Positions 5,338-24,428 are shown, counted from the stretch's first letter. The stretch is 24,428 nt of DNA from a virus (IMGVR_UViG_2734482543_000012), one strand, 5' to 3'. The notes: generated by a model from the letters alone, not told the origin. Program-made: numbers and translations.

Positions 5338-6637
5338 TCTCCCGCATATTGCCAGCATGGCTTTTAATGAGCCGCTGATGCTTGAACCCGCCTATGCGCG
5401 GGTTTTCTTTTGTGCGCTTGCAGGCCAGCTTGGGATCAGCTGCCTGACGGATGCAGTATCCGGCGACAGCCTGACTGCCGGAGAGGCACCCGCGGCGCTG
5501 GCGTTATCCGGTGATGATGACGGACCACGACAGGCCCGCAGTTATCAGGTAATGAACGGCATCGCCGTGCTGCCGGTGTCCGGCACGCTGGTCAGCCGGA
5601 CGCGGGCGCTGCAGCCGTACTCGGGGATGACCGGTTACAACGGCATTATCGCCCGTCTGCAACAGGCTGCCAGCGACCCGATGGTGGACGGCATTCTGCT
5701 CGATATGGACACACCGGGCGGAATGGTGGCGGGAGCATTTGACTGCGCTGACATCATCGCCCGTGTGCGTGACATAAAGCCGGTATGGGCGCTGGCCAAT
5801 GACATGAACTGCAGCGCAGGTCAGCTGCTTGCCAGTGCCGCCTCCCGGCGTCTGGTCACGCAGACCGCCCGGACAGGCTCCATCGGCGTCATGATGGCTC
5901 ACAGTAATTACGGCGCTGCACTGGAGAAACAGGGCGTGGAAATCACGCTGATTTACAGCGGCAGCCATAAGGTGGATGGCAACCCCTACAGCCATCTACC
6001 GGATGATGTCCGGGAAACATTGCAGTCCCGGATGGATGCAACCCGCCGGATGTTTGCACAGAAGGTGTCGGCATATACCGGCCTGTCCGTGCAGGCTGTG
6101 CTGGATACCGAGGCTGCAGTGTACAGCGGTCAGGAGGCCATTGATGCCGGACTGGCTGATGAACTTGTTAACAGTACCGATGCGATCACCGTCATGCGTG
6201 ATGCACTGGATGCACGTAAATCCCGTCTCTCAGGAGGGCGAATGACCAAAGAGACTCAATCAACAACTGTTTCAGCCACTGCTTCGCAGGCTGACGTTAC
6301 TGGCGTGGTGCAAGCGACGGAGGGCGAGAACGCCAGCGCGGCGCAGCCGGACGTGAACGCGCAGATCACCGCAGCGGTTGCGGCAGAAAACAGTCGCATT
6401 ATGGGGATCCTCAACTGTGAGGAGGCTCACGGACGCGAAGAACAGGCACGCGTGCTGGCCGAAACCCCCGGTATGACCGTGGAAACGGCCCGCCGTATTC
6501 TGGCCGCAGCACCACAGAGTGCACAGACGCGCAGTGACACTGCGCTGGATCGTCTGATGCAGGGGGCACCGGCACCGCTGGCTGCAGGTAACCCGGCATC
6601 TGATGCCGTTAACGATTTGCTGAACACACCAGTGTAA
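5318..6637 (+). CDS. C: Capsid maturation protease / scaffold gpC (439 aa), GTG start overlapping the 3' end of B
   Basis: ORF frame contains (V/M)TAELRNLPHIASMAFNEPLMLEPAYARVFF..., matching lambda gpC. GTG at 5318 gives the same 439-aa length as lambda C. ClpP/S49-like protease fold is expected for this family. Confidence 0.9.
6032..6637 (+). CDS. nu3: Scaffolding protein Nu3, an in-frame internal start within the 3' part of C (201 aa)
   Basis: Internal ATG (MDATRRMFAQKVSAYTG...) in the C reading frame, at the position corresponding to lambda Nu3 under the constant 900-nt offset seen for neighbouring genes. Not independently verifiable from sequence alone. Confidence 0.6.
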   Translation: MDATRRMFAQKVSAYTGLSVQAVLDTEAAVYSGQEAIDAGLADELVNSTDAITVMRDALDARKSRLSGGRMTKETQSTTVSATASQADVTGVVQATEGENASAAQPDVNAQITAAVAAENSRIMGILNCEEAHGREEQARVLAETPGMTVETARRILAAAPQSAQTRSDTALDRLMQGAPAPLAAGNPASDAVNDLLNTPV

Positions 6638-6646
6638 GGGATGTTT

Positions 6647-6979
6647 ATGACGAGCAAAGAAACCTTTACCCATTACCAGCCGCTGGGCAATAGTGACCCG
6701 GCTCATACCGCAACCGCGCCCGGCGGATTGAGTGCGAAAGCGCCTGCAATGACCCCGCTGATGCTGGACACCTCCACCCGTAAGCTGGTTGCGTGGGATG
6801 GCACCACCGACGGTGCTGCCGTTGGCATTCTTGCGGTTGCTGCTGACCAGACCAGCACCACACTGACGTTCTACAAGTCCGGCACGTTCCGTTATGAGGA
6901 TGTGCTCTGGCCGGAGGCTGCCAGCGACGAGACGAAAAAACGGACCGTGTTTGCCGGAACGGCAATCAGCATCGTTTAA
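6647..6979 (+). CDS. D: Capsid decoration protein gpD (110 aa)
   Basis: [43 protein letters not shown]... matches lambda gpD. The ORF track begins 2 codons upstream (MFM); the lambda-equivalent start is the ATG at 6647. Confidence 0.95.
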
Positions 6980-7034
6980 CTTTACCCTTCATCACTAAAG
7001 GCCGCCTGTGTGGCTTTTTTTACGGGATTTTTTT

Positions 7035-8060
7035 ATGTCGATGTACACAACCGCCCAGCTGCTGGCGGCAAATGAGCAGAAATTTAAGTTTGATCCGCTG
7101 TTTCTGCGTCTCTTTTTCCGTGAGAGCTATCCCTTCACTACGGAGAAAGTCTATCTCTCACAAATTCCGGGACTGGTAAACATGGCGCTGTACGTTTCGC
7201 CGATTGTTTCCGGTGAGGTTATCCGTTCCCGTGGCGGCTCCACCTCTGAATTTACGCCGGGATATGTCAAACCCAAGCATGAGGTGAATCCGCAGATGAC
7301 CCTGCGTCGCCTGCCGGATGAAGATCCGCAGAATCTGGCGGACCCGGCTTACCGCCGCCGTCGCATCATCATGCAGAACATGCGTGACGAAGAGCTGGCC
7401 ATTGCTCAGGTCGAAGAGATGCAGGCAGTTTCTGCCGTGCTCAAGGGCAAATACACCATGACCGGTGAAGCCTTCGATCCGGTTGAGGTGGATATGGGCC
7501 GCAGTGCGGCGAACAACATCACACAGTCCGGCGTCACGGAGTGGAGCAAGCGTGACAAGTCCACGTATGACCCGACCGACGATATCGAAGCCTACGCGCT
7601 GAACGCCAGCGGTGTGGTGAATATCATCGTGTTTGACCCGAAAGGCTGGGCGCTGTTCCGTTCCTTCAAAGCCGTCAAGGAGAAGCTGGATACCCGTCGC
7701 GGCTCTCATTCCGAGCTGGAGACAGCGGTAAAAGACCTGGGCAAAGCGGTGTCCTATAAGGGAATGTATGGCGATGTGGCCATCGTCGTGTATTCCGGAC
7801 AGTACGTGGAAAACGGCGTCAAAAAGAACTTCCTGCCGGACAACACGATGGTGCTGGGGAACACTCAGGCTCGCGGTCTGCGCACCTATGGCTGCATTCA
7901 GGATGCGGACGCACAGCGCGAAGGCATTAACGCTTCTGCCCGTTACCCGAAAAACTGGGTGACCACCGGCGATCCGGCGCGTGAGTTCACCATGATTCAG
8001 TCAGCACCGCTGATGCTGCTGGCTGATCCTGATGAGTTCGTGTCCGTTCAACTGGCGTAA
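7035..8060 (+). CDS. E: Major capsid protein gpE (341 aa)
   Basis: MSMYTTAQLLAANEQKFKFDPLFLRLFFRESYPFTTEKVYLSQIPGLVNMALYVSP... is near-identical to lambda gpE. The ORF track extends 9 codons upstream; the lambda-equivalent start is used. Confidence 0.97.
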   Translation: MSMYTTAQLLAANEQKFKFDPLFLRLFFRESYPFTTEKVYLSQIPGLVNMALYVSPIVSGEVIRSRGGSTSEFTPGYVKPKHEVNPQMTLRRLPDEDPQNLADPAYRRRRIIMQNMRDEELAIAQVEEMQAVSAVLKGKYTMTGEAFDPVEVDMGRSAANNITQSGVTEWSKRDKSTYDPTDDIEAYALNASGVVNIIVFDPKGWALFRSFKAVKEKLDTRRGSHSELETAVKDLGKAVSYKGMYGDVAIVVYSGQYVENGVKKNFLPDNTMVLGNTQARGLRTYGCIQDADAQREGINASARYPKNWVTTGDPAREFTMIQSAPLMLLADPDEFVSVQLA

Positions 8061-11033: not shown

Positions 11034-11449
11034 GTTTTGCCCTGAAACTGGCGCGTGAGATGGGGCGACCCGACTGGCGCGCCATGCTTGCCGGGATGTC
11101 ATCCACGGAGTATGCCGACTGGCACCGCTTTTACAGTACCCATTATTTTCATGATGTTCTGCTGGATATGCACTTTTCCGGGCTGACGTACACCGTGCTC
11201 AGCCTGTTTTTCAGCGATCCGGAGATGCATCCGCTGGATTTCAGTCTGCTGAACCGGCGCGAGGCTGACGAAGAGCCTGAAGATGATGTGCTGATGCAGA
11301 AAGCGGCAGGGCTTGCCGGAGGTGTCCGCTTTGGCCCGGACGGGAATGAAGTTATCCCCGCTTCCCCGGATGTGGCGGACATGACGGAGGATGACGTAAT
11401 GCTGATGACAGTATCAGAAGGGATCGCAGGAGGAGTCCGGTATGGCTGA
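10611..11449 (+). CDS. T: Tail assembly chaperone G-T fusion, made by a programmed -1 ribosomal frameshift at the G GGA AAG slippery heptamer near the 3' end of G. The T-frame part runs from about 11015 to 11449.
   Basis: The slippery sequence GGGAAAG lies at about 11009-11015, at the end of the G frame (..SAGKCSTVS). The -1 frame is open from there (VFDGELSFALKLAREMGRPDWRAMLAGMSS...) and matches lambda gpT. This arrangement is conserved in lambda-like tail operons. Confidence 0.8.
11009..11015 (+). other. Programmed -1 frameshift slippery heptamer (G GGA AAG) for G-T synthesis
   Basis: An exact X XXY YYZ heptamer positioned so that a -1 slip joins the G frame to the T frame. Coordinates read by eye, accurate to about 1-2 nt. 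Confidence 0.75.
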
Positions 11450-14040
11450 ACCGGTAGGCGATCTGGTCGTTGATTTGAGTCTGGATGCGGCCAGATTTGA
11501 CGAGCAGATGGCCAGAGTCAGGCGTCATTTTTCCGGTACGGAAAGTGATGCGAAAAAAACAGCGGCAGTCGTTGAACAGTCGCTGAGCCGACAGGCGCTG
11601 GCTGCACAGAAAGCGGGGATTTCCGTCGGGCAGTATAAAGCCGCCATGCGTATGCTGCCTGCACAGTTCACCGACGTGGCCACGCAGCTTGCAGGGGGGC
11701 AGAATCCCTGGCTGATCCTGCTGCAACAGGGTGGTCAGGTTAAGGACTCCTTCGGCGGGATGATCCCCATGTTCAGGGGGCTTGCCGGCGCGATCACCCT
11801 GCCGATGGTGGGGGCCACCTCGCTGGCGGTGGCGACCGGTGCGCTGGCGTATGCCTGGTATCAGGGCAACTCAACCCTGTCCGATTTCAACAAAACGCTG
11901 GTCCTTTCCGGTAATCAGGCGGGACTGACGGCAGATCGTATGCTGGTCCTGTCCAGAGCCGGGCAGGCGGCAGGGCTGACGTTTAACCAGACCAGCGAGT
12001 CACTCAGCGCACTGGTTAAGGCGGGGGTAAGCGGTGAGGCTCAGATTGCGTCCATCAGCCAGAGTGTGGCGCGTTTCTCCTATGCATCCGGCGTGGAGGT
12101 GGACAAGGTCGCTGAAGCCTTCGGGAAGCTGACCACAGACCCGACGTCGGGGCTGACGGCGATGGCACGCCAGTTCCATAACGTGACGGCGGAGCAGATT
12201 GCGTATGTTGCTCAGTTGCAGCGTTCCGGCGATGAAGCCGGGGCATTGCAGGCGGCGAACGAGGCCGCAACGAAAGGGTTTGATGACCAGACCCGCCGCC
12301 TGAAAGAGAACATGGGCACGCTGGAGACCTGGGCAGACAGGACTGCACGTGCATTCAAATCCATGTGGGATGCGGTGCTGGATATTGGTCGTCCTGATAC
12401 CGCGCAGGAGATGCTGATTAAGGCAGAGGCTGCGTTTAAGAAAGCAGACGACATCTGGAATCTGCGCAAGGATGATTATTTCGTTAACGATGAAGCACGG
12501 GCGCGTTACTGGGATGATCGTGAAAAAAAACGCCTGGAGCGGGATGCAGCCCAAAAGAGGGTAGATCAACAGCGTCAACAGGACAAAAATGCGCAGCAGC
12601 AGAGCGATACCGAAGCGTCACGGCTGAAATATACCGAAGAGGCGCAGAAGGCTTACGAACGGCTGCAGACGCCGCTGGAGAAATATACCGCCCGTCAGGA
12701 AGAACTGAACAAGGCACTGAAAGACGGAAAAATCCTGCAGGCAGATTACAACACGCTGATGGCGGCGGCGAAAAAGGATTATGAAGCGACGCTGAAAAAG
12801 CCGAAACAGTCCGGCGTGAAGGTGTATGCGGGCGATCGTCAGGAAGACAGTGCTCATGCGGCCCTGCTGACGCTTCAGGCAGAACTCCGGACGCTGGAGA
12901 AGCATGCCGGAGCGAATGAGAAAATCAGCCAGCAGCGCCGGGATTTGTGGAAGGCAGAAAGTCAGTTCGCGGTACTGGAGGAGGCGGCACAACGTCGCCA
13001 GCTGTCCGCACAGGAGAAATCCCTGCTGGCGCATAAAGACGAGACGCTGGAGTACAAACGCCAGCTGGCTGCACTTGGTGACAAGGTTACGTATCAGGAG
13101 CACCTGAATGCGCTGGCGCAGCAGGCGGATAAATTCGCACAGCAGCAACGGGCAAAACGGGCAGCCATTGATGCGAAAAACCGGGGGCTGACTGACCGGC
13201 AGGCAGCGCGGGAAGCCACGGAACAGCGCCTGAAGGAACAGTATGGCGATAATCCTCTGGCGCTGAATAACGTCATGTCAGAGCAGAAAAAGACCTGGGC
13301 GGCTGAAGACCAGCTTCGCGGGAGCTGGATGGCAGGCCTGAAGTCCGGCTGGAGTGAGTGGGAAGAGAGCGCCACGGACAGTATGTCACAGGTTAAAAGT
13401 GCAGCCACGCAGACCTNNNNNNNNNNNNNNNNNNNNNNNNNNNNNNNNNNNNNNNNNNNNNNNNNNNNNNNNNNNNNNNNNNNNNNNNNNNNNNNNNNNN
13501 NNNNNNNNNNNNNNNNNNNNNNNNNNNNNNNNNNNNNNNNNNNNNNNNNNNNNNNNNNNNNNNNNNNNNNNNNNNNNNNNNNNNNNNNNNNNNNNNNNNN
13601 NNNNNNNNNNNNNNNNNNNNNNNNNNNNNNNNNNNNNNNNNNNNNNNNNNNNNNNNNNNNNNNNNNNNNNNNNNNNNNNNNNNNNNNNNNNNNNNNNNAC
13701 CGGCGGCAAATATGAGCCAGCGGGGATTGTTCACCGTGGTGAATTTGTCTTCACGAAGGAGGCAACCAGCCGGATTGGCGTGGGGAATCTCTACCGGCTG
13801 ATGCGCGGCTATGCGGAAGGTGGTTATGTGGGCGGTGCCGGAAGTCCGGCGCAGATGCGGCGGGCTGAAGGCATTAATTTTAATCAGAACAATCACGTGG
13901 TGATTCAGAACGACGGTACGAATGGTCTGCCAGGTCCACAGATGATGAAGGCCGTGTATGACATGGCCCGCAAGGGTGCCCGTGATGAAATTCAGACACA
14001 GATGCGTGATGGTGGCCTGTTCTCCGGAGGTGGACGATGA
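11442..14040 (+). CDS. H: Tail tape-measure protein gpH, interrupted by an N-run (13417-13698). The two halves are in different frames because the gap length is arbitrary.
   Basis: N-terminal part MAEPVGDLVVDLSLDAARFDEQMARVRRHFSGTESDAKK... and C-terminal part ...GGKYEPAGIVHRGEFVFTKEATSRIGVGNLYRLMRGYA...QTQMRDGGLFSGGGR both match lambda gpH. The stop overlaps the M start as in lambda. Confidence 0.9.
13417..13698. other. Assembly gap / masked sequence (282 N) inside the tape-measure gene
   Basis: Continuous run of n characters. By comparison with lambda H length, roughly 245 nt of real sequence would be expected here, so the gap size is not exact. Confidence 0.95.
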
Positions 14041-14366
14041 AAACCTTCCGCTGGAAAGTGAAACCCGGTATGGATGTGGCTTCGGCCCCTTCTGTAAGAA
14101 AGGTGCGCTTTGGTGATGGCTATTCCCAGCGAGCGCCTGCCGGGCTGAATGCCAACCTGAAAACGTACAGCGTGACGCTTTCTGTCCCCCGTGAGGAGGC
14201 CATGGTACTGGAGTCGTTTCTGGAAGAGCACGGGGGCTGGAAAGCCTTTCTGTGGACGCCGCCTTATGAGTGGCGGCAGATAAAGGTGACCTGCGCAAAA
14301 TGGTCGTCGCGGGTCAGTATGCTGCGTGTTGAGTTCAGCGCAGAGTTTGAACAGGTGGTGAACTGA
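14037..14366 (+). CDS. M: Tail tip assembly protein gpM (109 aa)
   Basis: MKTFRWKVKPGMDVASAPSVRKVRFGDGYSQRAPAGLNANLKTYSVTLSVPREE... matches lambda gpM. Confidence 0.95.
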   Translation: MKTFRWKVKPGMDVASAPSVRKVRFGDGYSQRAPAGLNANLKTYSVTLSVPREEAMVLESFLEEHGGWKAFLWTPPYEWRQIKVTCAKWSSRVSMLRVEFSAEFEQVVN

Positions 14367-15064
14367 TGCAGGATATCCGGCAGGAAACACTGAATGAATG
14401 CACCCGTGCGGAGCAGTCGGCCAGCGTGGTGCTCTGGGAAATCGATCTGACAGAGGTCGGTGGAGAACGTTATTTTTTCTGTAATGAGCAGAACGAAAAA
14501 GGTGAGCCGGTCACCTGGCAGGGGCGACAGTATCAGCCGTATCCCATTCAGGGGAGTGGTTTTGAACTGAATGGCAAAGGCACCAGTACGCGCCCCACGC
14601 TGATGGTTTCTAACCTGTACGGTATGGTCACCGGGATGGCGGAAGATCTACAGAGTCTGGTCGGCGGAACGGTGGTCCGGCGTAAGGTTTACGCCCGTTT
14701 TCTGGATGCGGTGAACTTCGTCAACGGAAACAGTGACGCCGATCCGGAGCAGGAGGTGATCAGCCGCTGGCGCATTGAGCAGTGCAGCGAACTGAGCGCG
14801 GTGAGTGCCTCTTTTGTACTGTCCACGCCGACGGAAACAGATGGCGCTGTTTTTCCGGGACGTATCATGCTGGCCAACACCTGCACCTGGACCTATCGCG
14901 GCGATGAGTGCGGTTATCACGGTCCGGCGGTCGCGGATGAATATGACCAGCCAACGTCCGACATCACGAAGGATAAATGCAGCAAATGCCTGAGTGGCTG
15001 TAAGTTTCGCAATAACGTCGGCAACTTTGGCGGCTTCCTTTCCATTAACAAACTTTCGCAGTAA
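14366..15064 (+). CDS. L: Tail tip protein gpL (232 aa)
   Basis: MQDIRQETLNECTRAEQSASVVLWEIDLTEVGGERYFFCNEQNEKGEPVTWQGRQYQPYPIQG... matches lambda gpL, including C-terminal cysteines consistent with its Fe-S cluster. Start overlaps the M stop (TGATG). Confidence 0.95.
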   Translation: MQDIRQETLNECTRAEQSASVVLWEIDLTEVGGERYFFCNEQNEKGEPVTWQGRQYQPYPIQGSGFELNGKGTSTRPTLMVSNLYGMVTGMAEDLQSLVGGTVVRRKVYARFLDAVNFVNGNSDADPEQEVISRWRIEQCSELSAVSASFVLSTPTETDGAVFPGRIMLANTCTWTYRGDECGYHGPAVADEYDQPTSDITKDKCSKCLSGCKFRNNVGNFGGFLSINKLSQ

Positions 15065-15069
15065 ATCCC

Positions 15070-15813
15070 ATGACAGAGACAGAATCAGCGATTCTGGCGC
15101 ACGCCCGGCGATGTGCTCCAGCGGAGTCGTGCGGCTTCGTGGTAAGAACGCCGGAGGGGGAAAGATATTTCCCCTGCGTGAATATCTCCGGTGAGCCGGA
15201 GGCGTATTTCCGTATGTCGCCGGAAGACTGGCTGCAGGCAGAGATGCAGGGTGAGATTGTGGCACTGGTCCACAGCCACCCCGGTGGTCTGCCCTGGCTG
15301 AGTGAGGCCGACCGGCGGCTGCAGGTGCAGAGTGATTTGCCGTGGTGGCTGGTCTGCCGGGGGGCGATTCACAAGTTCCGCTGTGTGCCACATCTTACCG
15401 GGCGGCGCTTTGAGCACGGGGTGACGGACTGTTACACGCTGTTCCGGGATGCTTACCATCTGGCGGGGATTGAGATGCCGGATTTTCATCGTGAGGATGA
15501 CTGGTGGCGTCACGGTCAGAATCTCTATCTGGATAATCTGGAGGCCACAGGGCTGTATCAGGTGCCGTTGTCAGCGGCGCAGCCGGGCGATGTGCTGCTG
15601 TGCTGTTTTGGTTCATCGGTGCCGAATCATGCCGCCATTTACTGTGGTGACGGCGAGCTGCTGCACCATATTCCTGAACAACTGAGCAAACGAGAGAGGT
15701 ATACCGACAAATGGCAGCGACGCACACACTCCCTCTGGCGTCACCGGGCATGGCACGCATCTGCCTTTACGGGGATTTGCAACGATTTGGCCGCCGCATC
15801 GACCTTCGTGTGA
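15070..15813 (+). CDS. K: Tail tip assembly protein gpK, full-length 247-aa form with an N-terminal JAB/MPN (JAMM) domain and a C-terminal NlpC/P60-like Cys-His domain. The classical 199-aa lambda annotation corresponds to the internal ATG near 15214.
   Basis: ORF starts 5 nt after the L stop. Contains the JAMM-type motif HSHPGGLPWLSEAD with an upstream Glu, plus Cys (DCYTLFRDAYHLAG) and His (NHAAIYCGDGELLHH) typical of NlpC/P60. The C-terminal 199 aa match lambda gpK. 103-nt overlap with I as in lambda. Confidence 0.85.
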   Translation: MTETESAILAHARRCAPAESCGFVVRTPEGERYFPCVNISGEPEAYFRMSPEDWLQAEMQGEIVALVHSHPGGLPWLSEADRRLQVQSDLPWWLVCRGAIHKFRCVPHLTGRRFEHGVTDCYTLFRDAYHLAGIEMPDFHREDDWWRHGQNLYLDNLEATGLYQVPLSAAQPGDVLLCCFGSSVPNHAAIYCGDGELLHHIPEQLSKRERYTDKWQRRTHSLWRHRAWHASAFTGICNDLAAASTFV

Positions 15814-16382
15814 AAACGGGTGCCGAAGCCATCCGGGCGATGGCCACACAGCTCCCTGCGTTTCGTCAGAAGCTGAGCGACGGCTGGTATCAGGTGCGTA
15901 TTGCCGGGCAGGATGTTAGCACGTCCGGATTAACGGCACAGTTACATGAGGCTCTGCCTGACGGCGCTGTGATTCATATTGTTCCCAGAGTCGCCGGGGC
16001 CAAGTCAGGTGGTGTATTCCAGATTGTCCTGGGAGCAGCCGCCATTGCCGGATCATTCTTTACCGCCGGAGCCACCCTTGCAGCATGGGGGGCTGCCATT
16101 GGTGCCGGTGGTATGACCGGCATTCTGTTTTCTCTCGGTGCCAGTATGGTGCTCGGCGGTGTGGCTCAGATGCTGGCACCGAAAGCCAGAACTCCCCGCA
16201 CACAGACAACGGATAACGGTAAGCAGAACACCTATTTCTCCTCACTGGATAACATGGTTGCCCAGGGCAATGTTATGCCTGTTCTGTATGGTGAAATGCG
16301 CGTGGGGTCACGTGTGGTATCTCAGGAGATCAGCACGGCAGACGAAGGGGACGGTGGTCAGGTTGTGGTGATTGGTCGCTGA
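15711..16382 (+). CDS. I: Tail tip assembly protein gpI (223 aa)
   Basis: MAATHTLPLASPGMARICLYGDLQRFGRRIDLRVKTGAEAIRAMATQLPAFRQK... matches lambda gpI. Confidence 0.95.
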   Translation: MAATHTLPLASPGMARICLYGDLQRFGRRIDLRVKTGAEAIRAMATQLPAFRQKLSDGWYQVRIAGQDVSTSGLTAQLHEALPDGAVIHIVPRVAGAKSGGVFQIVLGAAAIAGSFFTAGATLAAWGAAIGAGGMTGILFSLGASMVLGGVAQMLAPKARTPRTQTTDNGKQNTYFSSLDNMVAQGNVMPVLYGEMRVGSRVVSQEISTADEGDGGQVVVIGR

Positions 16383-16442
16383 TGCAAAATGTTTTATGTG
16401 AAATCGCCTCCGGGCGGTTTTATCGTTTATGGAGCATGACGA

Positions 16443-19400
16443 ATGGGTAAAGGCAGCAGTAAGGGGCATACCCCGCGCGAAGCGAAGGACAACCTGAAGT
16501 CCACGCAGCTGCTGAGTGTGATCGATGCCATCAGCGAAGGGCCGGTTGAAGGTCCGGTGGATGGATTAAAAAGCGTGCTGCTGAACAGTACGCCGGTGCT
16601 GGACAGTGAGGGGAATACCAACATCTCCGGCGTCACGGTGGTGTTCCGGGCAGGTGAGCAGGAGCAGTCACCGCCGGAGGGATTTGAATCCTCCGGCTCC
16701 GAGACGGTGCTGGGTACGGAAGTGAAATATGACACGCCGATCACCCGGACCATCACGTCGGCAAACATTGACCGACTGCGTTTTACCTTCGGTGTACAGG
16801 CACTGGTGGAAACCACCTCAAAGGGAGACAGGAATCCGTCTGAAGTTCGCCTGCTGGTTCAGATACAGCGTAACGGTGGCTGGGTGACGGAAAAAGACAT
16901 CACCATTAAGGGCAAAACCACCTCGCAGTATCTGGCCTCGGTGGTGGTGGATAACCTGCCGCCGCGCCCGTTTAATATCCGGATGCGCAGAATGACGCCG
17001 GACAGCACCACAGACCAGCTGCAGAACAAAACGCTCTGGTCGTCATACACCGAAATCATCGATGTGAAACAGTGCTACCCGAACACGGCACTGGTCGGCG
17101 TACAGGTGGATTCGGAGCAGTTCGGCAGCCAGCAGGTGAGCCGTAATTATCATCTTCGCGGGCGCATTCTGCAGGTGCCGTCGAACTATAATCCGCAGAC
17201 GCGGCAATACAGCGGTATCTGGGACGGAACGTTAAAACCGGCATACAGCAACAACATGGCCTGGTGTCTGTGGGATATGCTGACCCATCCGCGCTATGGC
17301 ATGGGGAAACGTCTTGGTGCGGCAGATGTGGATAAATGGGCGCTGTATGTCATCGGCCAGTACTGTGACCAGTCGGTGCCGGACGGCTTTGGCAGCACGG
17401 AGCCGCGCATCACCTGTAATGCCTGGCTGACCACACAGCGCAAGGCGTGGGATGTGCTCAGTGATTTCTGCTCGGCGATGCGCTGTATGCCGGTATGGAA
17501 CGGGCAGACGCTGACGTTCGTGCAGGACCGACAGTCGGATAAGGTGTGGGCCTATAACCGCAGTAATGTGGTGATGCCGGATGATGGCGCGCCGTTCCGC
17601 TACAGTTTCAGCGCCCTGAAAGACCGCCATAATGCCGTTGAGGTGAACTGGATTGACCCGGATAACGGCTGGGAGACGGCGACAGAGCTTGTGGAGGATA
17701 CGCAGGCCATTGTCCGTTACGGTCGTAACGTCACGAAGATGGATGCCTTTGGCTGTACCAGCCGGGGGCAGGCACACCGCGCCGGGCTGTGGCTGATTAA
17801 AACGGAACTGCTGGAGACGCAGACCGTGGATTTCAGCGTGGGTGCTGAAGGGCTTCGTCATGTACCGGGCGATGTCATTGAAATCTGCGATGATGACTAT
17901 GCCGGTATCCGCACCGGCGGGCGCGTGCTGGCGGTGAACAGCCAGACCCGGACGCTGACGCTCGACCGTGAAATCACGCTGCCATCCTCCGGCACCACGC
18001 TGATAAGCCTGGTTGACGGGCAGGGGAATCCGGTCAGCGTGGAGGTCCAGTCCGTCACCGACGGCGTGAAGGTAAAAGTGAGCCGTGTTCCTGACGGTGT
18101 TGCTGAATACAGCGTGTGGGGGCTGAAGCTGCCGACGCTGCACCAGCGATTGTTCCGCTGCGTGAGTATCCGTGAGAACGACGACGGCACGTATGCCATC
18201 ACCGCCGTGCAGCATGTGCCGGAAAAAGAAGCCATCGTGGATAACGGGGCGCACTTTGACGGCGACCAGAGCGGCACGGTGAATGGTGTCACGCCGCCAG
18301 CGGTGCAGCACCTGACTGCCGAAGTCACCGCAGACAGCGGGGAATATCAGGTGCTGGCGCGCTGGGACACGCCGAAGGTGGTGAAGGGCGTGAGCTTCCT
18401 GCTCCGTCTGACCGTAACAGCGGATGACGGCAGTGAGCGGCTGGTCAGCACGGCCCGGACGACGGAAACCACTTACCGCTTCACACAACTGGCGCTGGGG
18501 AACTACAGGCTGACAGTCCGGGCAGTAAATGCGTGGGGGCAGCAGGGCGATCCGGCGTCGGTATCGTTCCGGATTGCCGCACCGGCAGCGCTGTCGCGGA
18601 TTGAGCTGACGCCGGGCTATTTTCAGATAACCGCCACGCCGCATCTTGCGGTTTATGATCCGACGGTACAGTTTGAGTTCTGGTTCTCGGAAAAGCGGAT
18701 TGCGGATATCAGGCAGGTTGAAACCACAGCACGCTATCTTGGCACGGCGCTGTACTGGATAGCCGCCAGTATCAATATCAAACCGGGCCATGATTATTAC
18801 TTTTATATCCGCAGTGTGAACACCGTTGGCAAATCGGCATTCGTGGAGGCTGTTGGTCAGCCGAGTGATGATGCATCCGGTTATCTGGATTTTTTCAAAG
18901 GCGAGATAGGGAAAACCCATCTGGCTCAGGAGCTGTGGACGCAGATTGATAACGGTCAGCTTGCGCCTGACCTGGCTGAAATCAGGACGTCCATTACGGA
19001 TGTCAGCAATGAAATCACGCAGACCGTCAATAAGAAACTGGAAGACCAGAGTGCGGCAATTCAGCAGATACAGAAGGTTCAGGTTGATACAAATAATAAC
19101 CTGAACAGCATGTGGGCTGTGAAGCTGCAGCAGATGCAGGACGGACGCCTTTATATCGCGGGTATTGGTGCCGGTATTGAGAACACCCCTGACGGCATGC
19201 AGAGTCAGGTGCTGCTGGCGGCGGACAGGATTGCGATGGTTAATCCTGCGAATGGCAACACAAAACCGATGTTTGTTGGTCAGGGCGATCAGATATTCAT
19301 GAACGACGTGTTCCTGAAACGCCTGACGGCCCCCACCATTACCAGCGGTGGAAATCCATCGGCATTTTCCCTGACTCCGGACGGAAAGCTGACCGCTAAA

Positions 19401-19940
19401 AATGCGGATATCAGTGGCAGTGTGAATGCGAACGCCGGGACGCTCAACAATGTCACGGTAAATGAAAACTGTACGATTAAGGGCATGCTGGAGGCGACTC
19501 AGGTCAGAGGTGACTTCGTTAAAGCTGTATCCAAATCATTTCCGAAACAGGCTGGTACGTGGGGTAACACGGAAACACCAAACGGGACGGTTACAGTCAC
19601 CATAAGCGATGATCATAACTTTGACCGCCAGATTATTATTCCGCCCATTATTTTTAACGGTATAGCGTATGACGATCCGGGGAGCGGAAATAACCCAGGA
19701 GGCACGCGATACACGGGTTATGGTTTTGAAGTTCGCAAAAACGGCGTATTAATCGCATCCAGAGAAACTAAAGGTGCCATTCCCGGTAGTTACAGTGCAG
19801 TTATTGATATGCCTAGTGGTGGTGGTAGCGTCACTCTGGAGTTTAAGATTTTCCAGAAAGGCAATCAGGGGGCAGGCAATATCACCGACTGTACGGTGAT
19901 TGTGACCAAAAAAGCGGCTTCCGGCATCAGTATTCGTTGA
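16443..19940 (+). CDS. J: Central tail fibre / tip attachment (host-specificity) protein gpJ, 1165 aa. The N-terminal roughly 800 aa are lambda-like; the distal C-terminal receptor-binding region diverges from lambda J.
   Basis: [54 protein letters not shown]... and most of the body are near-identical to lambda gpJ (1132 aa in lambda). The C-terminal about 150 aa (..[32 protein letters not shown]...[10 protein letters not shown]) do not match my recollection of the lambda LamB-binding C-terminus. Confidence 0.95.
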
Positions 19941-19962
19941 AATATTTATAACCCCAATAAAT

Positions 19963-19987
19963 GGCGTCAGGAATGACGCCTTTTTTA
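19963..19987 (+). terminator. Rho-independent terminator-like hairpin downstream of J
   Basis: GGCGTCA-GGAA-TGACGCC inverted repeat followed by TTTTTTATT, about 20 nt after the J stop. Coordinates by eye, within 2 nt. Confidence 0.6.
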
Positions 19988-20010
19988 TTGCAGAAAAGCG
20001 AGAGGTAATT

Positions 20011-20819
20011 ATGCGTAAAGTTTGTGCAGCCATTTTGTCCGCAGCCATTTGCCTGGCCGTATCCGGTGCGCCTGCATGGGCGTCTGAACATCAGTCCACG
20101 CTGAGCGCGGGGTATCTTCATGCCCGGACCAACGTTCCCGGCAGTGATGATCTGAACGGGATTAACGTGAAATACCGTTATGAGTTTACGGATACGCTGG
20201 GGCTGGTGACGTCATTCAGCTATGCAGGAGACAAGAATCGCCAGCTGACCCGTTACAGCGATACCCGCTGGCATGAAGATTCCGTGCGTAACCGCTGGTT
20301 CAGCGTGATGGCGGGGCCGTCTGTGCGCGTGAATGAATGGTTCAGCGCGTATGCGATGGCGGGTGTGGCTTACAGCCGTGTGTCGACTTTTTCCGGGGAT
20401 TATATCCGCGTAACTGACAATAAGGGGAAAACGCACGATGTGCTGACCGGAAGTGATGACGGTCGCCACAGCAACACGTCTCTGNNNNNNNNNNNNNNNN
20501 NNNNNNNNNNNNNNNNNNNNNNNNNNNNNNNNNNNNNNNNNNNNNNNNNNNNNNNNNNNNNNNNNNNNNNNNNNNNNNNNNNNNNNNNNNNNNNNNNNNN
20601 NNNNNNNNNNNNNNNNNNNNNNNNNNNNNNNNNNNNNNNNNNNNNNNNNNNNNNNNNNNNNNNNNNNNNNNNNNNNNNNNNNNNNNNNNNNNNNNNNNNN
20701 NNNNNNNNNNNNNNNNNNNCCCGACCGAATCCGTGGCCATTGATATTGCTTATGAAGGCTCCGGCAGTGGCGACTGGCGCACTGACGGTTTCATCGTGGG
20801 TGTCGGTTATAAGTTCTGA
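20011..20819 (+). CDS. lom: Outer-membrane beta-barrel protein of the Lom/Ail/PagC/OmpX family (lysogen-expressed moron), interrupted by an N-run. The N-terminal part diverges from lambda Lom; the C-terminal 32 aa are lambda-like.
   Basis: N-terminal signal peptide (MRKVCAAILSAAICLAVSGAPAWA), alternating-hydrophobic beta-strand segments (GINVKYRYEFTDTLGLVTSFSYAG, WFSAYAMAGVAYSRV), and C-terminal ...VAIDIAYEGSGSGDWRTDGFIVGVGYKF ending in aromatic F, as in lambda Lom. Position between J and stf as in lambda. The frame differs across the gap (gap artefact). Confidence 0.85.
20485..20719. other. Assembly gap / masked sequence (235 N) inside lom
   Basis: Continuous run of n characters. Alignment of the flanking Lom segments to lambda Lom suggests only about 10 codons are missing, so the run length is not informative, or extra sequence is hidden. 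Confidence 0.95.
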
Positions 20820-20844
20820 TTAGCCAGGTAACACAGTGTTATGA

Positions 20845-20873: not shown

Positions 20874-20883
20874 TGGGGTGAAT

Positions 20884-23844
20884 ATGGCAGTAAAGATTTC
20901 AGGTGTACTGAAAGACGGCACAGGAAAACCGGTACAGAACTGCACAATCCAGCTGAAAGCAAAACGTAACAGCACCACGGTGGTGGTGAACACGCTGGCC
21001 TCAGAAAATCCGGATGAAGCCGGGCGTTACAGCATGGACGTTGAGTACGGTCAGTACAGCGTTATTCTGTTGGTGGAAGGATTCCCGCCGTCACATGCCG
21101 GGACCATCACCGTGTATGAAGATTCCCGACCCGGTACGCTGAATGATTTTCTCGGTGCCATGACGGAGGATGATGCCCGTCCGGAGGCTCTGCGCCGTTT
21201 TGAACTGATGGTGGAAGAGGTGGCGCGTAACGCGTCCGCGGTGGCACAGAACACGGCAGCCGCGAAGAAGTCAGCCAGTGATGCCGGCACATCTGCCCGT
21301 GAGGCGGCAACCCATGCGACTGATGCTGCAGGCTCAGCGCGTGCAGCCAGCACGTCAGCCGGACAGGCCGCGACTTCGGCTCAGGAGGCGTCTTCCAGCG
21401 CAGGAACGGCATCAACAAAGGCCACTGAAGCATCAAAAAGTGCTGCCGCTGCAGAGTCCTCAAAAAGCGCGGCGGCCACCAGTGCCGGTGCGGCGAAAAC
21501 GTCAGAAACGAATGCTGCAGCGTCACAAAAATCAGCAGCCACTTCTGCATCCACTGCGACAACGAAAGCGTCAGAAGCCGCCACTTCAGCCAGAGATGCG
21601 GCGGCCTCCAAAGAGGCGGCAAAATCATCAGAAACGAACGCCTCCACAAGCGCCAGCAGTGCAGCCTCCTCGGCAACGGCGGCAGGAAATTCCGTGAAGG
21701 CGGCAAAAACGTCCGAGACGAATGCTAAGTCTTCTGAAACGGCAGCGGAACAGAGCGCCTCAGCTGCGGCAGACTCTGAGACAGCAGCTGCATCATCGGC
21801 CCGTGAGGCGTCCATTAAGGCAGAGGAGGCAGCAGTCAGTGCCACCGCCGCCGGAAAATCGGCAGAAAGCGCCGCATCATCCGCTTCAACAGCCACAACG
21901 AAGGCTGGCGAAGCCACTGAACAGGCCAGCGCAGCAGCGAGGTCTGCTTCCGCAGCGAAGACATCCGAAACGAACGCGAAAGCGTCGGAAACCAGCGCAG
22001 AATCCTCAAAAACGGCTGCCGCATCGTCCGCCAGTTCGGCGGCGTCATCGGCATCATCTGCGTCTGCTTCAAAAGATGAGGCGACCAGACAGGCGTCAGC
22101 AGCGAGGGGCAGCGCCACGACGGCATCCACGAAGGCGACAGAGGCTGCTGGCAGTGCGGCAGCGGCAGCACAGAGCAAAAGTACGGCGGAATCCGCGGCA
22201 ACGCGCGCCGAGACAGCAGCAAAACGGGCAGAGGATATTGCATCCGCCGTGGCGCTTGAGGATGCGAGCACGACGAAAAAGGGGATAGTACAGCTCAGCA
22301 GTGCGACCAACAGCACTTCCGAGTCACAGGCGGCAACGCCAAAAGCCGTTAAGGCCGCGTATGACCTGGCTAACGGGAAATACACCGCACAGGATGCAAC
22401 GACAGCACAGAAAGGGATAGTTCAGCTCAGCAGTGCGACTAACAGCACTTCCGAGTCACAGGCGGCAACGCCAAAAGCCGTTAAGGCCGCGTATGACCTG
22501 GCTAACGGGAAATACACCGCACAGGACGCTACGACAGCACAAAAAGGAATTGTCCAGCTCAGTAGTGCAACCAACAGCACATCTGAAACGCTTGCTGCGA
22601 CACCGAAAGCAGTGAAAGCAGCTAATGACAATGCGAATGGTCGGGTACCTTCTGCCCGTAAGGTGAATGGTAAGGCGCTTTCAGCGGATATAACACTGAC
22701 GCCGAAAGATATTGGTACGCTTAACTCAACAACAATGTCATTCAGCGGTGGTGCTGGTTGGTTCAAATTAGCAACGGTAACCATGCCACAGGCGAGTTCT
22801 GTTGTTTCAATTACGTTGATTGGTGGCGCTGGATTTAACGTGGGGTCACCTCAACAGGCAGGTATATCTGAACTTGTTTTACGTGCAGGTAATGGTAATC
22901 CGAAGGGGATTACTGGTGCTTTATGGCAGCGCACATTGACAGGGTTTACAAATTTTGCCTGGGTTAATACATCTGGTGATACTTACGATATTTACGTTGC
23001 AATCGGAAATTATGCGACTGGTGTAAATATTCAATGGGATTATACCAGTAATGCCAGCGTGACGATTCATACGTCACCAGCATATTCTGCTAATAAGCCG
23101 GAAGGGTTAACGGACGGTACAGTTTATTCACTCTATACGCCATCAGAGCAGTTTTATCCGCCTGGCGCACCAATCCCGTGGCCATCAGATACCGTTCCGT
23201 CTGGCTATGCCCTGATGCAGGGGCAGGCTTTTGACAAATCTGCATACCCGAAACTTGCAGCGGCTTATCCGTCAGGCGTGATCCCTGATATGCGTGGCTG
23301 GACGATTAAGGGCAAACCTGCCAGTGGTCGGGCCGTATTGTCTCAGGAACAGGACGGCATTAAATCGCATACCCACAGCGCCAGCGCATCCAGTACGGAT
23401 TTGGGGACGAAAACCACATCGTCGTTTGATTACGGCACTAAATCCACGAATAACACTGGTGCGCATACCCATAGTTTAAGTGGCAGCACGAATGCAGCTG
23501 GTAATCACAGCCATAGAGATGGCCGTCGATTTAACCCCAGTGTTTTTAAAGATACTTATCAATATGGTTATACAAGCTCAGGTCAAAATACCTGGGGTGT
23601 ACAAGGCTCAGTAGGTATGTCTACGGGGTGGTTAGCGAATACCAGTATAGATGGTAATCATAGCCATTCACTGTCCGGCACAGCAGCATCTGCAGGTGCA
23701 CACGCGCATACTGTCGGTATTGGTGCTCATACGCACTCCGTTGCGATTGGTTCACATGGACACACCATCACCGTTAACGCTGCTGGTAACGCGGAAAACA
23801 CCGTCAAAAACATCGCATTTAACTATATTGTGAGGCTTGCATAA
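20884..23844 (+). CDS. stf: Side tail fibre protein Stf, intact, 986 aa from the ATG at 20884. Lambda-like N-terminal anchor, a long Ala/Ser/Thr-rich fibrous shaft, three tandem about 44-aa tail-fibre repeats, a tail-collar-like domain and a C-terminal His-rich (HxH) tip.
   Basis: N-terminus [62 protein letters not shown]... matches the lambda Stf (orf-401) N-terminus. Repeats [43 protein letters not shown] x3. Tail-collar-like segment [34 protein letters not shown]. HxH motifs (HTHS, HSHS, HAHT, HGHT) resemble the T4 gp37-type tip. The ORF track starts at a GTG 2 codons upstream; the ATG with GGGG upstream is preferred. Confidence 0.9.
22270..22650 (+). repeat. Tandem in-frame coding repeat, period 132 bp (44 aa), about 2.9 copies, within stf. 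Copies 1 and 2 are nearly identical at nucleotide level; copy 3 has diverged.
   Basis: Direct repetition of ..ACGACAGCACAGAAAGGGATAGTTCAGCTCAGCAGTGCGAC(C/T)AACAGCACTTCCGAGTCACAGGCGGCAACGCCAAAAGCCGTTAAGGCCGCGTATGACCTGGCTAACGGGAAATACACCGCACAGGA.. visible in the sequence, encoding the repeated peptide. Boundaries approximate. Confidence 0.8.
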
Positions 23845-24428
23845 TGGCATTCAGAATGAGTGAACAACCACGGACCATAAAAATTTATAATCTGCTGGCC
23901 GGAACTAATGAATTTATTGGTGAAGGTGATGCATATATTCCGCCTCATACAGGTCTGCCAGCAAACAGTACCGATATTGCACCGCCAGATATTCCGGCTG
24001 GCTTCGTGGCTGTTTTCAACAGTGATGAGTCATCGTGGCATCTCGTTGAAGATCATCGGGGTAAAACGGTTTATGACGTGGCTTCCGGCGACGCGTTATT
24101 TATTTCTGAACTCGGTCCGTTACCGGAAAATGTTACCTGGTTATCGCCGGAAGGGGAGTTTCAGAAGTGGAACGGCACAGCCTGGGTGAAGGATACGGAA
24201 GCAGAAAAACTGTTCCGGATCCGGGAGGCGGAAGAAACAAAAAACAACCTGATGCAGGTAGCCAGTGAGCATATTGCGCCGCTTCAGGATGCTGCAGATC
24301 TGGAAATTGCAACGGAGGAAGAAATCTCGTTGCTGGAAGCATGGAAAAAGTATCGGGTATTGCTGAACCGTGTTGATACGTCAACTGCACCTGATATTGA
24401 GTGGCCTACGAACCCTGTCAGGGAGTAA
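23844..24428 (+). CDS. tfa: Tail fibre assembly protein Tfa (194 aa); its start overlaps the stf stop (TAATG)
   Basis: [61 protein letters not shown]... matches lambda Tfa. Complete ORF ending at the last base of the window. Confidence 0.93.

Follow-up and report, generated by a model that had tools for sequence, protein, structure and literature searches.

The J gene and its features

The DNA analysed here is a viral sequence of 24,428 nucleotides (nt), IMGVR_UViG_2734482543_000012, referred to throughout as the window, and our subject is its gene J, which encodes the tip attachment (central tail fibre) protein. The window carries a lambda-like late operon in the lambda gene order (nu1, A, B, C, D, E ... 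H, M, L, K, I, J, lom, stf, tfa), and J lies between I and lom, as it does in lambda. The order and sizes of the open reading frames (ORFs) agree with the lambda annotation, and lom, stf and tfa were named from Pfam matches. The J ORF is uninterrupted across all 1165 amino acids (aa), and the divergence from lambda that is examined here sits in its 3′ third.

Six Pfam families are found in J, all above their curated cut-offs and in the expected order: FNIII-A_GpJ, Phage-tail_3, Ig_J, Ig_J_second, Phage_Tail_Tip and Ig_GpJ_C. Phage_Tail_Tip spans residues 872-1000, and Ig_GpJ_C, which is the C-terminal receptor-binding domain of the J family, spans residues 1029-1164 with a score of 89 bits. 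The window J is thus a member of the lambda gpJ family of tip attachment proteins. The parts into which it was divided are listed below, with domain names taken from the structure of the lambda fibre (PMC11101478), in which J has hub domains and two FNIII domains, then an alpha-helical shaft, then the straight fibre, which is a beta-sheet prism, and at its end an Ig-like receptor-binding domain.

16443..19940, plus strand: gene J, tip attachment or central tail fibre protein, an intact ORF of 1165 aa (from the ORF list and translation).
16443..18850, plus strand: conserved N-terminal part (hub domains and FNIII/Ig domains), aa 1-803, with 97-98% aa identity to lambda, 434, ev099, ev087 and Chlobot.
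18851..19285, plus strand: module 1, the 'long' shaft (alpha-helical shaft and upper straight fibre), aa ~804-948, longer by 28 residues than its counterparts in lambda and 434.
19286..19460, plus strand: conserved island (lower straight fibre), aa ~949-1005, with DNA identities of 92% to lambda, 91% to 434 and 89% to ev099.
19461..19937, plus strand: module 2, aa 1006-1165, a 434-type receptor-binding domain, assigned by homology and by Pfam Ig_GpJ_C.

Divergence of J from lambda

J was compared with the lambda reference (NC_001416, 15505-18903; 1132 aa, NP_040600). In the protein alignment, identity to lambda J is 97% over residues 1-805 and ~51% over residues 806-945, which include 28 additional residues; it rises to 92% over residues 946-1005 and falls to 40% over residues 1006-1165, where several indels amount to a net gain of 5 residues. 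Nucleotide identities to lambda fall into corresponding segments:

15711-18850: I gene and 5′ part of J, 95.5%.
18851-19285: shaft module, 65%, plus 84 gap columns.
19286-19460: conserved island, 92%.
19461-19940: receptor-binding domain, 56% (55.7%).
19941-20484: intergenic region and lom, 56%.

When tested against the upstream part, the divergent segments give Fisher p values from 3e-59 to 2e-112 (3e-59 for the shaft module and 4e-105 for the receptor-binding domain). Divergence from lambda does not end with J, but extends across the intergenic sequence into lom, reaching at least 20484. Base composition follows the same partition: G+C content is 0.588 in the N-terminal part (0.712 at third codon positions, GC3), drops to 0.507 in the shaft module, is 0.550 in the island and reaches its lowest value, 0.471 (GC3 0.456), in the receptor-binding domain, the lambda equivalent of which has 0.546. 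Across the whole window, 6.5% of 480-nt intervals have a G+C content as low as, or lower than, that of the receptor-binding domain.

The initial annotation of this sequence described J as near-identical to lambda for some 800 residues and as different from lambda, and lower in G+C, towards its C-terminus, all of which agrees with these alignments and with the local G+C values. It placed the start of the divergence at 18900, about 50 nt too far downstream; mismatches to lambda start at ~18851, and the DNA breakpoints are at ~18851, 19285 and 19461. It also treated the C-terminus as a single replaced unit. Replacement is indeed what is seen, but it involves two modules split by the conserved island. 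The difference of 33 aa in total length (1165 versus 1132 aa) was given correctly, but most of it belongs to the shaft, with 28 residues in a block at aa ~836-870 and a net 5 in the receptor-binding domain.

J is assembled from exchangeable modules

The module comparison included six J proteins: those of the window, lambda, 434, ev099, ev087 and Chlobot. The N-terminal part is of a single type and is 97-99% identical in all six. Module 1 is of two types, a short shaft of 112 aa in lambda and 434, whose shaft modules are 99% identical to each other, and a long shaft of 140 aa in the window, ev099, ev087 and Chlobot. The window shaft is 51-52% identical to the short type and 99-100% identical to the other long ones, and its DNA is 65% identical to lambda and 434 (with 84 gap columns) versus 98.4% to ev099.

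The terminal domains are of three types. Lambda alone represents the lambda type; the window, ev099 and 434 share the 434 type (94-96% identical mutually); and ev087 and Chlobot have a third, with the Chlobot domain aligning to PDB chain 9wca, 'A8 gpJ 713'. The window domain has the near-identity without indels to the last ~160 aa of 434 J that marks the 434 type (94% over 160 aa, and 96% to ev099 J), and its DNA (19461-19940) is 95.0% identical to 434. It lacks the high identity that a lambda-type domain would have over lambda J residues ~980-1132, including the loops at ~1012 and 1107: the value is 40%, with indels opposite lambda 1011-1012, the 1040s and ~1100-1110. Nor is there high identity to the C-terminal domain of A8 gpJ, since the A8/ev087 type represented by ev087 and Chlobot is 43% and 46% identical, respectively, and differs in length. 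The refuting outcome, high identity of the C-terminus to lambda, was thus not seen on alignment, and the mosaic J with a replaced distal host-range module proposed in the initial annotation is upheld, the replacement being the well-known 434 type.

All four combinations of shaft and tip occur among these proteins (short with lambda, short with 434, long with 434, and long with A8), so the two divergent blocks are separate modules. A similar picture emerges from the 120 best natural homologues, in which the 434-type tip (at least 90% identity) is joined to at least four shaft types, with identities to the window shaft of at least 98%, ~83%, ~60% and ~41%, and no fewer than three types of receptor-binding domain occur with the window's shaft type. 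This shows that shaft and tip assort independently.

The island between them has a protein identity of 82-95% among the six J proteins, and informative sites that are ev099-like and 434-like are intermingled within it; it is likely to be the crossover zone between the two modules. The tip itself is a finer mosaic, in which 12 informative sites resembling ev099 (19511-19604) are followed by 22 resembling 434 (19628-19826), a pattern that points to ongoing recombination among 434-type alleles. The mosaic structure, its breakpoints, the module identities and the allele frequencies are direct observations of this analysis. At every polymorphic site in the receptor-binding domain, the window has an allele that is common among 42 distinct 434-type tails.

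One residue in the otherwise conserved island departs from the majority: S973 (19359-19361) is a proline in 40 of the 42 distinct 434-type J tails, and it is the sole rare substitution observed across the last 220 residues of J.

Receptor of the 434-type tip

We consider it very probable that J is a three-part natural recombinant with a 434-type tip, most likely docking on OmpC instead of LamB. Its first part would be a lambda-like hub and Ig-domain portion (aa 1-803) and its second a 'long' shaft (aa ~804-948) of the ev099/cdtI/VT1-Sakai type. The third, beyond the crossover zone in the island, would be a 434-type receptor-binding domain (aa 1006-1165), acquired jointly with the neighbouring 434-type lom. 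The C-terminal Ig-like domain, presumably a trimer, would then most likely dock on the trimeric porin OmpC instead of LamB, and this docking would trigger opening of the tail in the manner shown for lambda J on LamB. Both the binding to OmpC and the trigger mechanism are proposed from homology and the literature.

The published receptor of 434, and of lambda h434, is OmpC. According to a review of how lambda interacts with LamB (PMC3509688), a phage with the 434 tail fibre gene in place of lambda J binds OmpC, which is also what 434 itself uses; a 2025 study describes the central tail fibre of 434 as OmpC-targeting (PMC12502783); and Hantke (1978), as quoted in work that cites it, has phage 434 using protein Ib. 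The initial annotation had suggested a receptor other than, or a variant of, LamB. With a tip of the 434 type, a receptor that is not the lambda-type LamB is supported and the suggestion is narrowed, it being highly likely from sequence homology and these reports that the window J uses OmpC.

Two kinds of recombinant indicate where in J the specificity lies. Comparison of lambda h434 imm21 (OM418627) with its parents shows it to be lambda-like to record position 17619 and 434-like from 17637, the 434-like part beginning at J codon ~711 and taking in both lom and the side fibre gene. Because the lambda and 434 shafts are 99% identical, the host-range difference within J resides essentially in the terminal domain. 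Natural J C-termini grafted after lambda residue 964 suffice to redirect lambda particles from LamB to OmpC (Brodel et al. 2024, PMC11338833), in particles in which the OmpC-binding lambda side fibre had been swapped for a lipopolysaccharide-binding P2 chimera. Lambda residue 964 aligns with G992 of the window J, within the conserved island. The window tip was also considered as a possible instance of either A8 or 1A2 of Brodel et al., and this was rejected, as the C-terminal ends differ and the A8 type is just 43-46% identical.

The initial annotation left room for a domain that still binds LamB, or the LamB variant of the natural host, with the divergence amounting to allelic variation among LamB binders. 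The tip does belong to the same fold family as that of lambda, as judged by Pfam Ig_GpJ_C and the PDB matches, but it is just 40% identical to it, has indels at the sites aligned to lambda 1012 and 1107, which define specificity lineages, and shares 94% identity with the J of 434, which confers an OmpC host range. LamB binding is accordingly rated very unlikely.

Another porin, such as OmpF, or a restricted set of OmpC alleles could instead be the target if the few variable-loop differences from 434 had shifted the specificity. Among the 42 distinct 434-type tails, variable positions cluster at 1032-1047, 1077-1078 and 1127-1143, and these clusters correspond to the stretches near lambda 1012 and 1107, where J has both specificity hot spots and lineage-defining indels (Maddamsetti et al., PMC6646904). 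The natural J variants A8 and 1A2, moreover, accept different OmpC alleles (PMC11338833). At each such position of the receptor-binding domain, however, the window residue is a common one; phages with the same full-length J (~96% nucleotide identity) have been propagated on E. coli K-12 strains, according to the host column of their records; and nothing points to a receptor other than OmpC. We regard such a shift as unlikely.

Several points weigh against assigning the window J to OmpC. A literature search for papers with receptor tests on phages that combine precisely this shaft and tip (mEp332, Ayreon, phi458, ev099, PhiR34) found none, and the papers using PhiR phages report no porin receptors. 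Lambda h434 has the lom and side tail fibre genes of 434 as well, so that the classical genetics considered here does not on its own separate the receptor-binding domain from those genes. Of the 160 tip residues, 9 or 10 differ from 434, some of them in polymorphic stretches aligned to the lambda specificity hot spots, and the preference for OmpC alleles could therefore differ. Direct transduction data exist for two OmpC-binding J variants, of which A8 also has a solved structure, and both carry other tip types, 43-46% identical to that of the window where measured. Structure prediction adds little: the mean predicted local distance difference test (pLDDT) score of the AlphaFold2 monomer is low, at 57.

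Mapping of the modules onto J fibre structures

On the lambda fibre, the counterpart of module 1 in the alignment is the shaft plus the upper end of the prism. Upon binding of LamB, residues 841-861 of the lambda J shaft refold to strands, and four loops of the receptor-binding domain touch the receptor (PMC11101478); the 28 additional residues of the window lie directly upstream of the counterpart of lambda 841-861. When aa 801-1165 were modelled as a single chain with AlphaFold2, helices were predicted at J 811-823, 826-837 and 841-888, with moderate-to-low confidence there. The best sequence matches in the PDB are A8 gpJ (9wca, E = 9e-105) and lambda gpJ (8xcj, E = 3e-96). Foldseek returns the same fibres as its top hits, together with 9wcb, the A8 gpJ-OmpC complex, but TM-scores are low (0.3) and these hits are largely sequence-driven. 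None of the solved structures has a 434-type tip. A homotrimeric central fibre with helical shaft, beta-prism and C-terminal Ig-like domain, as in the gpJ family, is probable for the window J from its sequence homology to the solved fibres, which is decisive (E = 1e-96 to 1e-105).

A more speculative view, which we hold to be doubtful, is that the 28-residue (four-heptad) lengthening of the helical shaft is a functional module in its own right and that the polymorphic loops of the tip tune the acceptance of OmpC alleles. If so, the longer shaft could extend the reach of the central fibre or alter the upward travel of the receptor signal, and it might allow OmpC to be reached through a thicker O-antigen or capsule, as in Shigella sonnei.

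lom, masked regions and the integrity of the prophage

Two features follow J directly:

19963..19986, plus strand: a terminator-like hairpin between J and lom, GGCGTCA-GGAA-TGACGCC followed by six T, read from the sequence.
20011..20484, plus strand: 5′ part of lom (Ail/Lom outer membrane protein) of the 434/ev099 type, with a match to Pfam Ail_Lom at E = 5e-95.

The phage 434 record has a terminator annotated at the equivalent place after J. The DNA from 19941 to 20484 is 94-95% identical to 434 and ev099 versus 56% to lambda, and the 5′ part of lom was probably co-inherited with module 2 in a 434-like tract that runs from J into lom.

Two runs of N interrupt the window, one of 282 bases within H (13417-13698) and one of 235 bases within lom (20485-20719). 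Neither has the length expected from relatives, lambda having 245 nt at the first site, and Chlobot 26 nt (and 434 ~27, judged by its protein) at the second. The runs produce a false split of H, an artificial lom ORF of 270 aa and a false trough in G+C. Two candidate features were rejected on this account. A foreign insert after J, suggested by the very low G+C of 0.147 at 20400-20700, corresponds to the 235-N run, and a frameshift in the split tape measure gene H corresponds to the 282-N mask, where lambda has 245 nt.

Apparent breaks of this kind bear on whether J might be a relic in a defective prophage, its specificity having no present function. The tape measure gene H appears as two ORFs (11442-13715 and 13354-14040), the lom ORF is odd, and lom is internally deleted in Shigella sonnei loci with an identical J. 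The breaks in H and in the window lom, however, coincide with the N masks; apart from the masked H, every ORF from nu1 to tfa whose length was compared is at least as long as its lambda counterpart; and J is an uninterrupted ORF of 1165 aa whose identical protein occurs in 4293 blocks of an assembly collection. A relic J is extremely improbable.

The Shigella sonnei loci with an identical J (L006-L011) have 0-2 mismatches to the window over 13443-20484 and an identity of ~94% after the lom mask. In these loci the internal deletion in lom (~6569-7051) leaves a product of 160 aa. The window lom (19941-20823) keeps its normal 3′ end after the mask, and is ~94% identical to the Shigella sonnei loci from there; this drop in identity indicates a further recombination junction at or near the lom mask.

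Other features of the window

F952 of the window J (19296-19298) is the conserved counterpart of lambda J F924, the HepS trigger residue. Mutation of F924 lets lambda escape the prophage-encoded abortive-infection nuclease HepS (PMC13043305), and by the F924/F952 correspondence the window J would be a HepS trigger.

The side tail fibre ORF (20878-23844) is uninterrupted and encodes 988 aa with Pfam matches to phage_tail_N, Phage_fiber_2 repeats and Collar, and the tail fibre assembly gene (23844-24428, 194 aa) follows it directly. The corresponding region of the lambda reference is split into orf-401 and orf-314. Similarity to known phages is patchy here, with at most 83% coverage, and this second host-range determinant is thus mosaic too.

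The window has ~900 bases upstream of nu1 (within 1-1090), unlike the beginning of the lambda virion map, which fits a prophage (circularly permuted) order. The segment 1-1090 is 98% identical to PhiR49_1, Chlobot and Kati, whose annotations give hypothetical proteins there.

Relatives and comparison with known J proteins

Fifteen phage records match the full-length J with 100% coverage and 95.3-96.4% nucleotide identity: ev099, phi458, Kati, PhiR34_1, cdtI, Ayreon, PhiR68_2, PhiR42_1, ev243, phiSTEC1575-Stx2k, mEp332 and vB_EcoS-569R4, some of them deposited twice. Several of these records name E. coli K-12 strains as host, which speaks for a functional J of this architecture. Considered separately in tblastn searches, the long shaft is present at 95% protein identity or more in 65 phage records, including VT1-Sakai and cdtI, and the 434-type tip at 90% or more in 74, including 434, mEp460 and many Stx1a and Stx2c phages; lambda scores 38.6% for the tip. 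The assembly-collection blocks in which the identical 1165-aa J is indexed include record HE616528.1, which we take to be Shigella sonnei 53G, and partial J proteins with 100% identity are labelled Shigella sonnei.

If the assignment to OmpC is correct, the receptor of this prophage can be predicted as OmpC rather than LamB, which would be of use for predictions of host range and of superinfection patterns in Shigella and E. coli. The picture of two modules, shaft and tip, around an island may guide the engineering of lambda-based delivery particles, although such grafting has already been done. Otherwise this is one more case of known modular exchange in the J specificity region, and it matters little beyond annotation. 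Independent reassortment of that region was described in 2018, and the set of related phages used by Maddamsetti et al. (PMC6646904) included cdtI, Ayreon and mEp460.

Four known systems are close enough for direct comparison. The J of phage 434 (OL657226, 15505-18918), or the h434 allele of lambda h434 imm21 (OM418627), resembles the window in its N-terminal part (98%), tip type (94%) and lom type, but has the short lambda-type shaft, with 112 aa that are 52% identical to the 140 aa of the window; the window, as judged from its sequence, joins a different shaft to the 434-type tip. The ev099 J has the same architecture and aligned length (1165 aa), with a shaft 99% and a tip 96% identical, and only allelic differences separate the window from ev099, cdtI, Ayreon, mEp332, phi458, Kati, PhiR34_1 and others.

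Lambda J (structures 8IYK, 8XCK, and 8XCJ with LamB) shares with the window its family, domain order, N-terminal 805 aa (97%) and island (92%), whereas its shaft is 28 aa shorter (51% identity), its tip is 40% identical with indels, and its receptor is LamB. A8 gpJ (PDB 9wca, closed; 9wcb, open with OmpC of E. coli EDL933) is the best PDB match and, for its own part, uses OmpC, but its tip is 46% identical, 5 aa shorter and has a different C-terminal end; phage Chlobot carries an A8-type receptor-binding domain on the same long shaft as the window. The 434 host-range allele belongs to classical genetics, and engineered grafts at the conserved island have already been published (PMC11338833). 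Compared with these systems, the window J adds no new element and is an ordinary, widespread allele that is already known.

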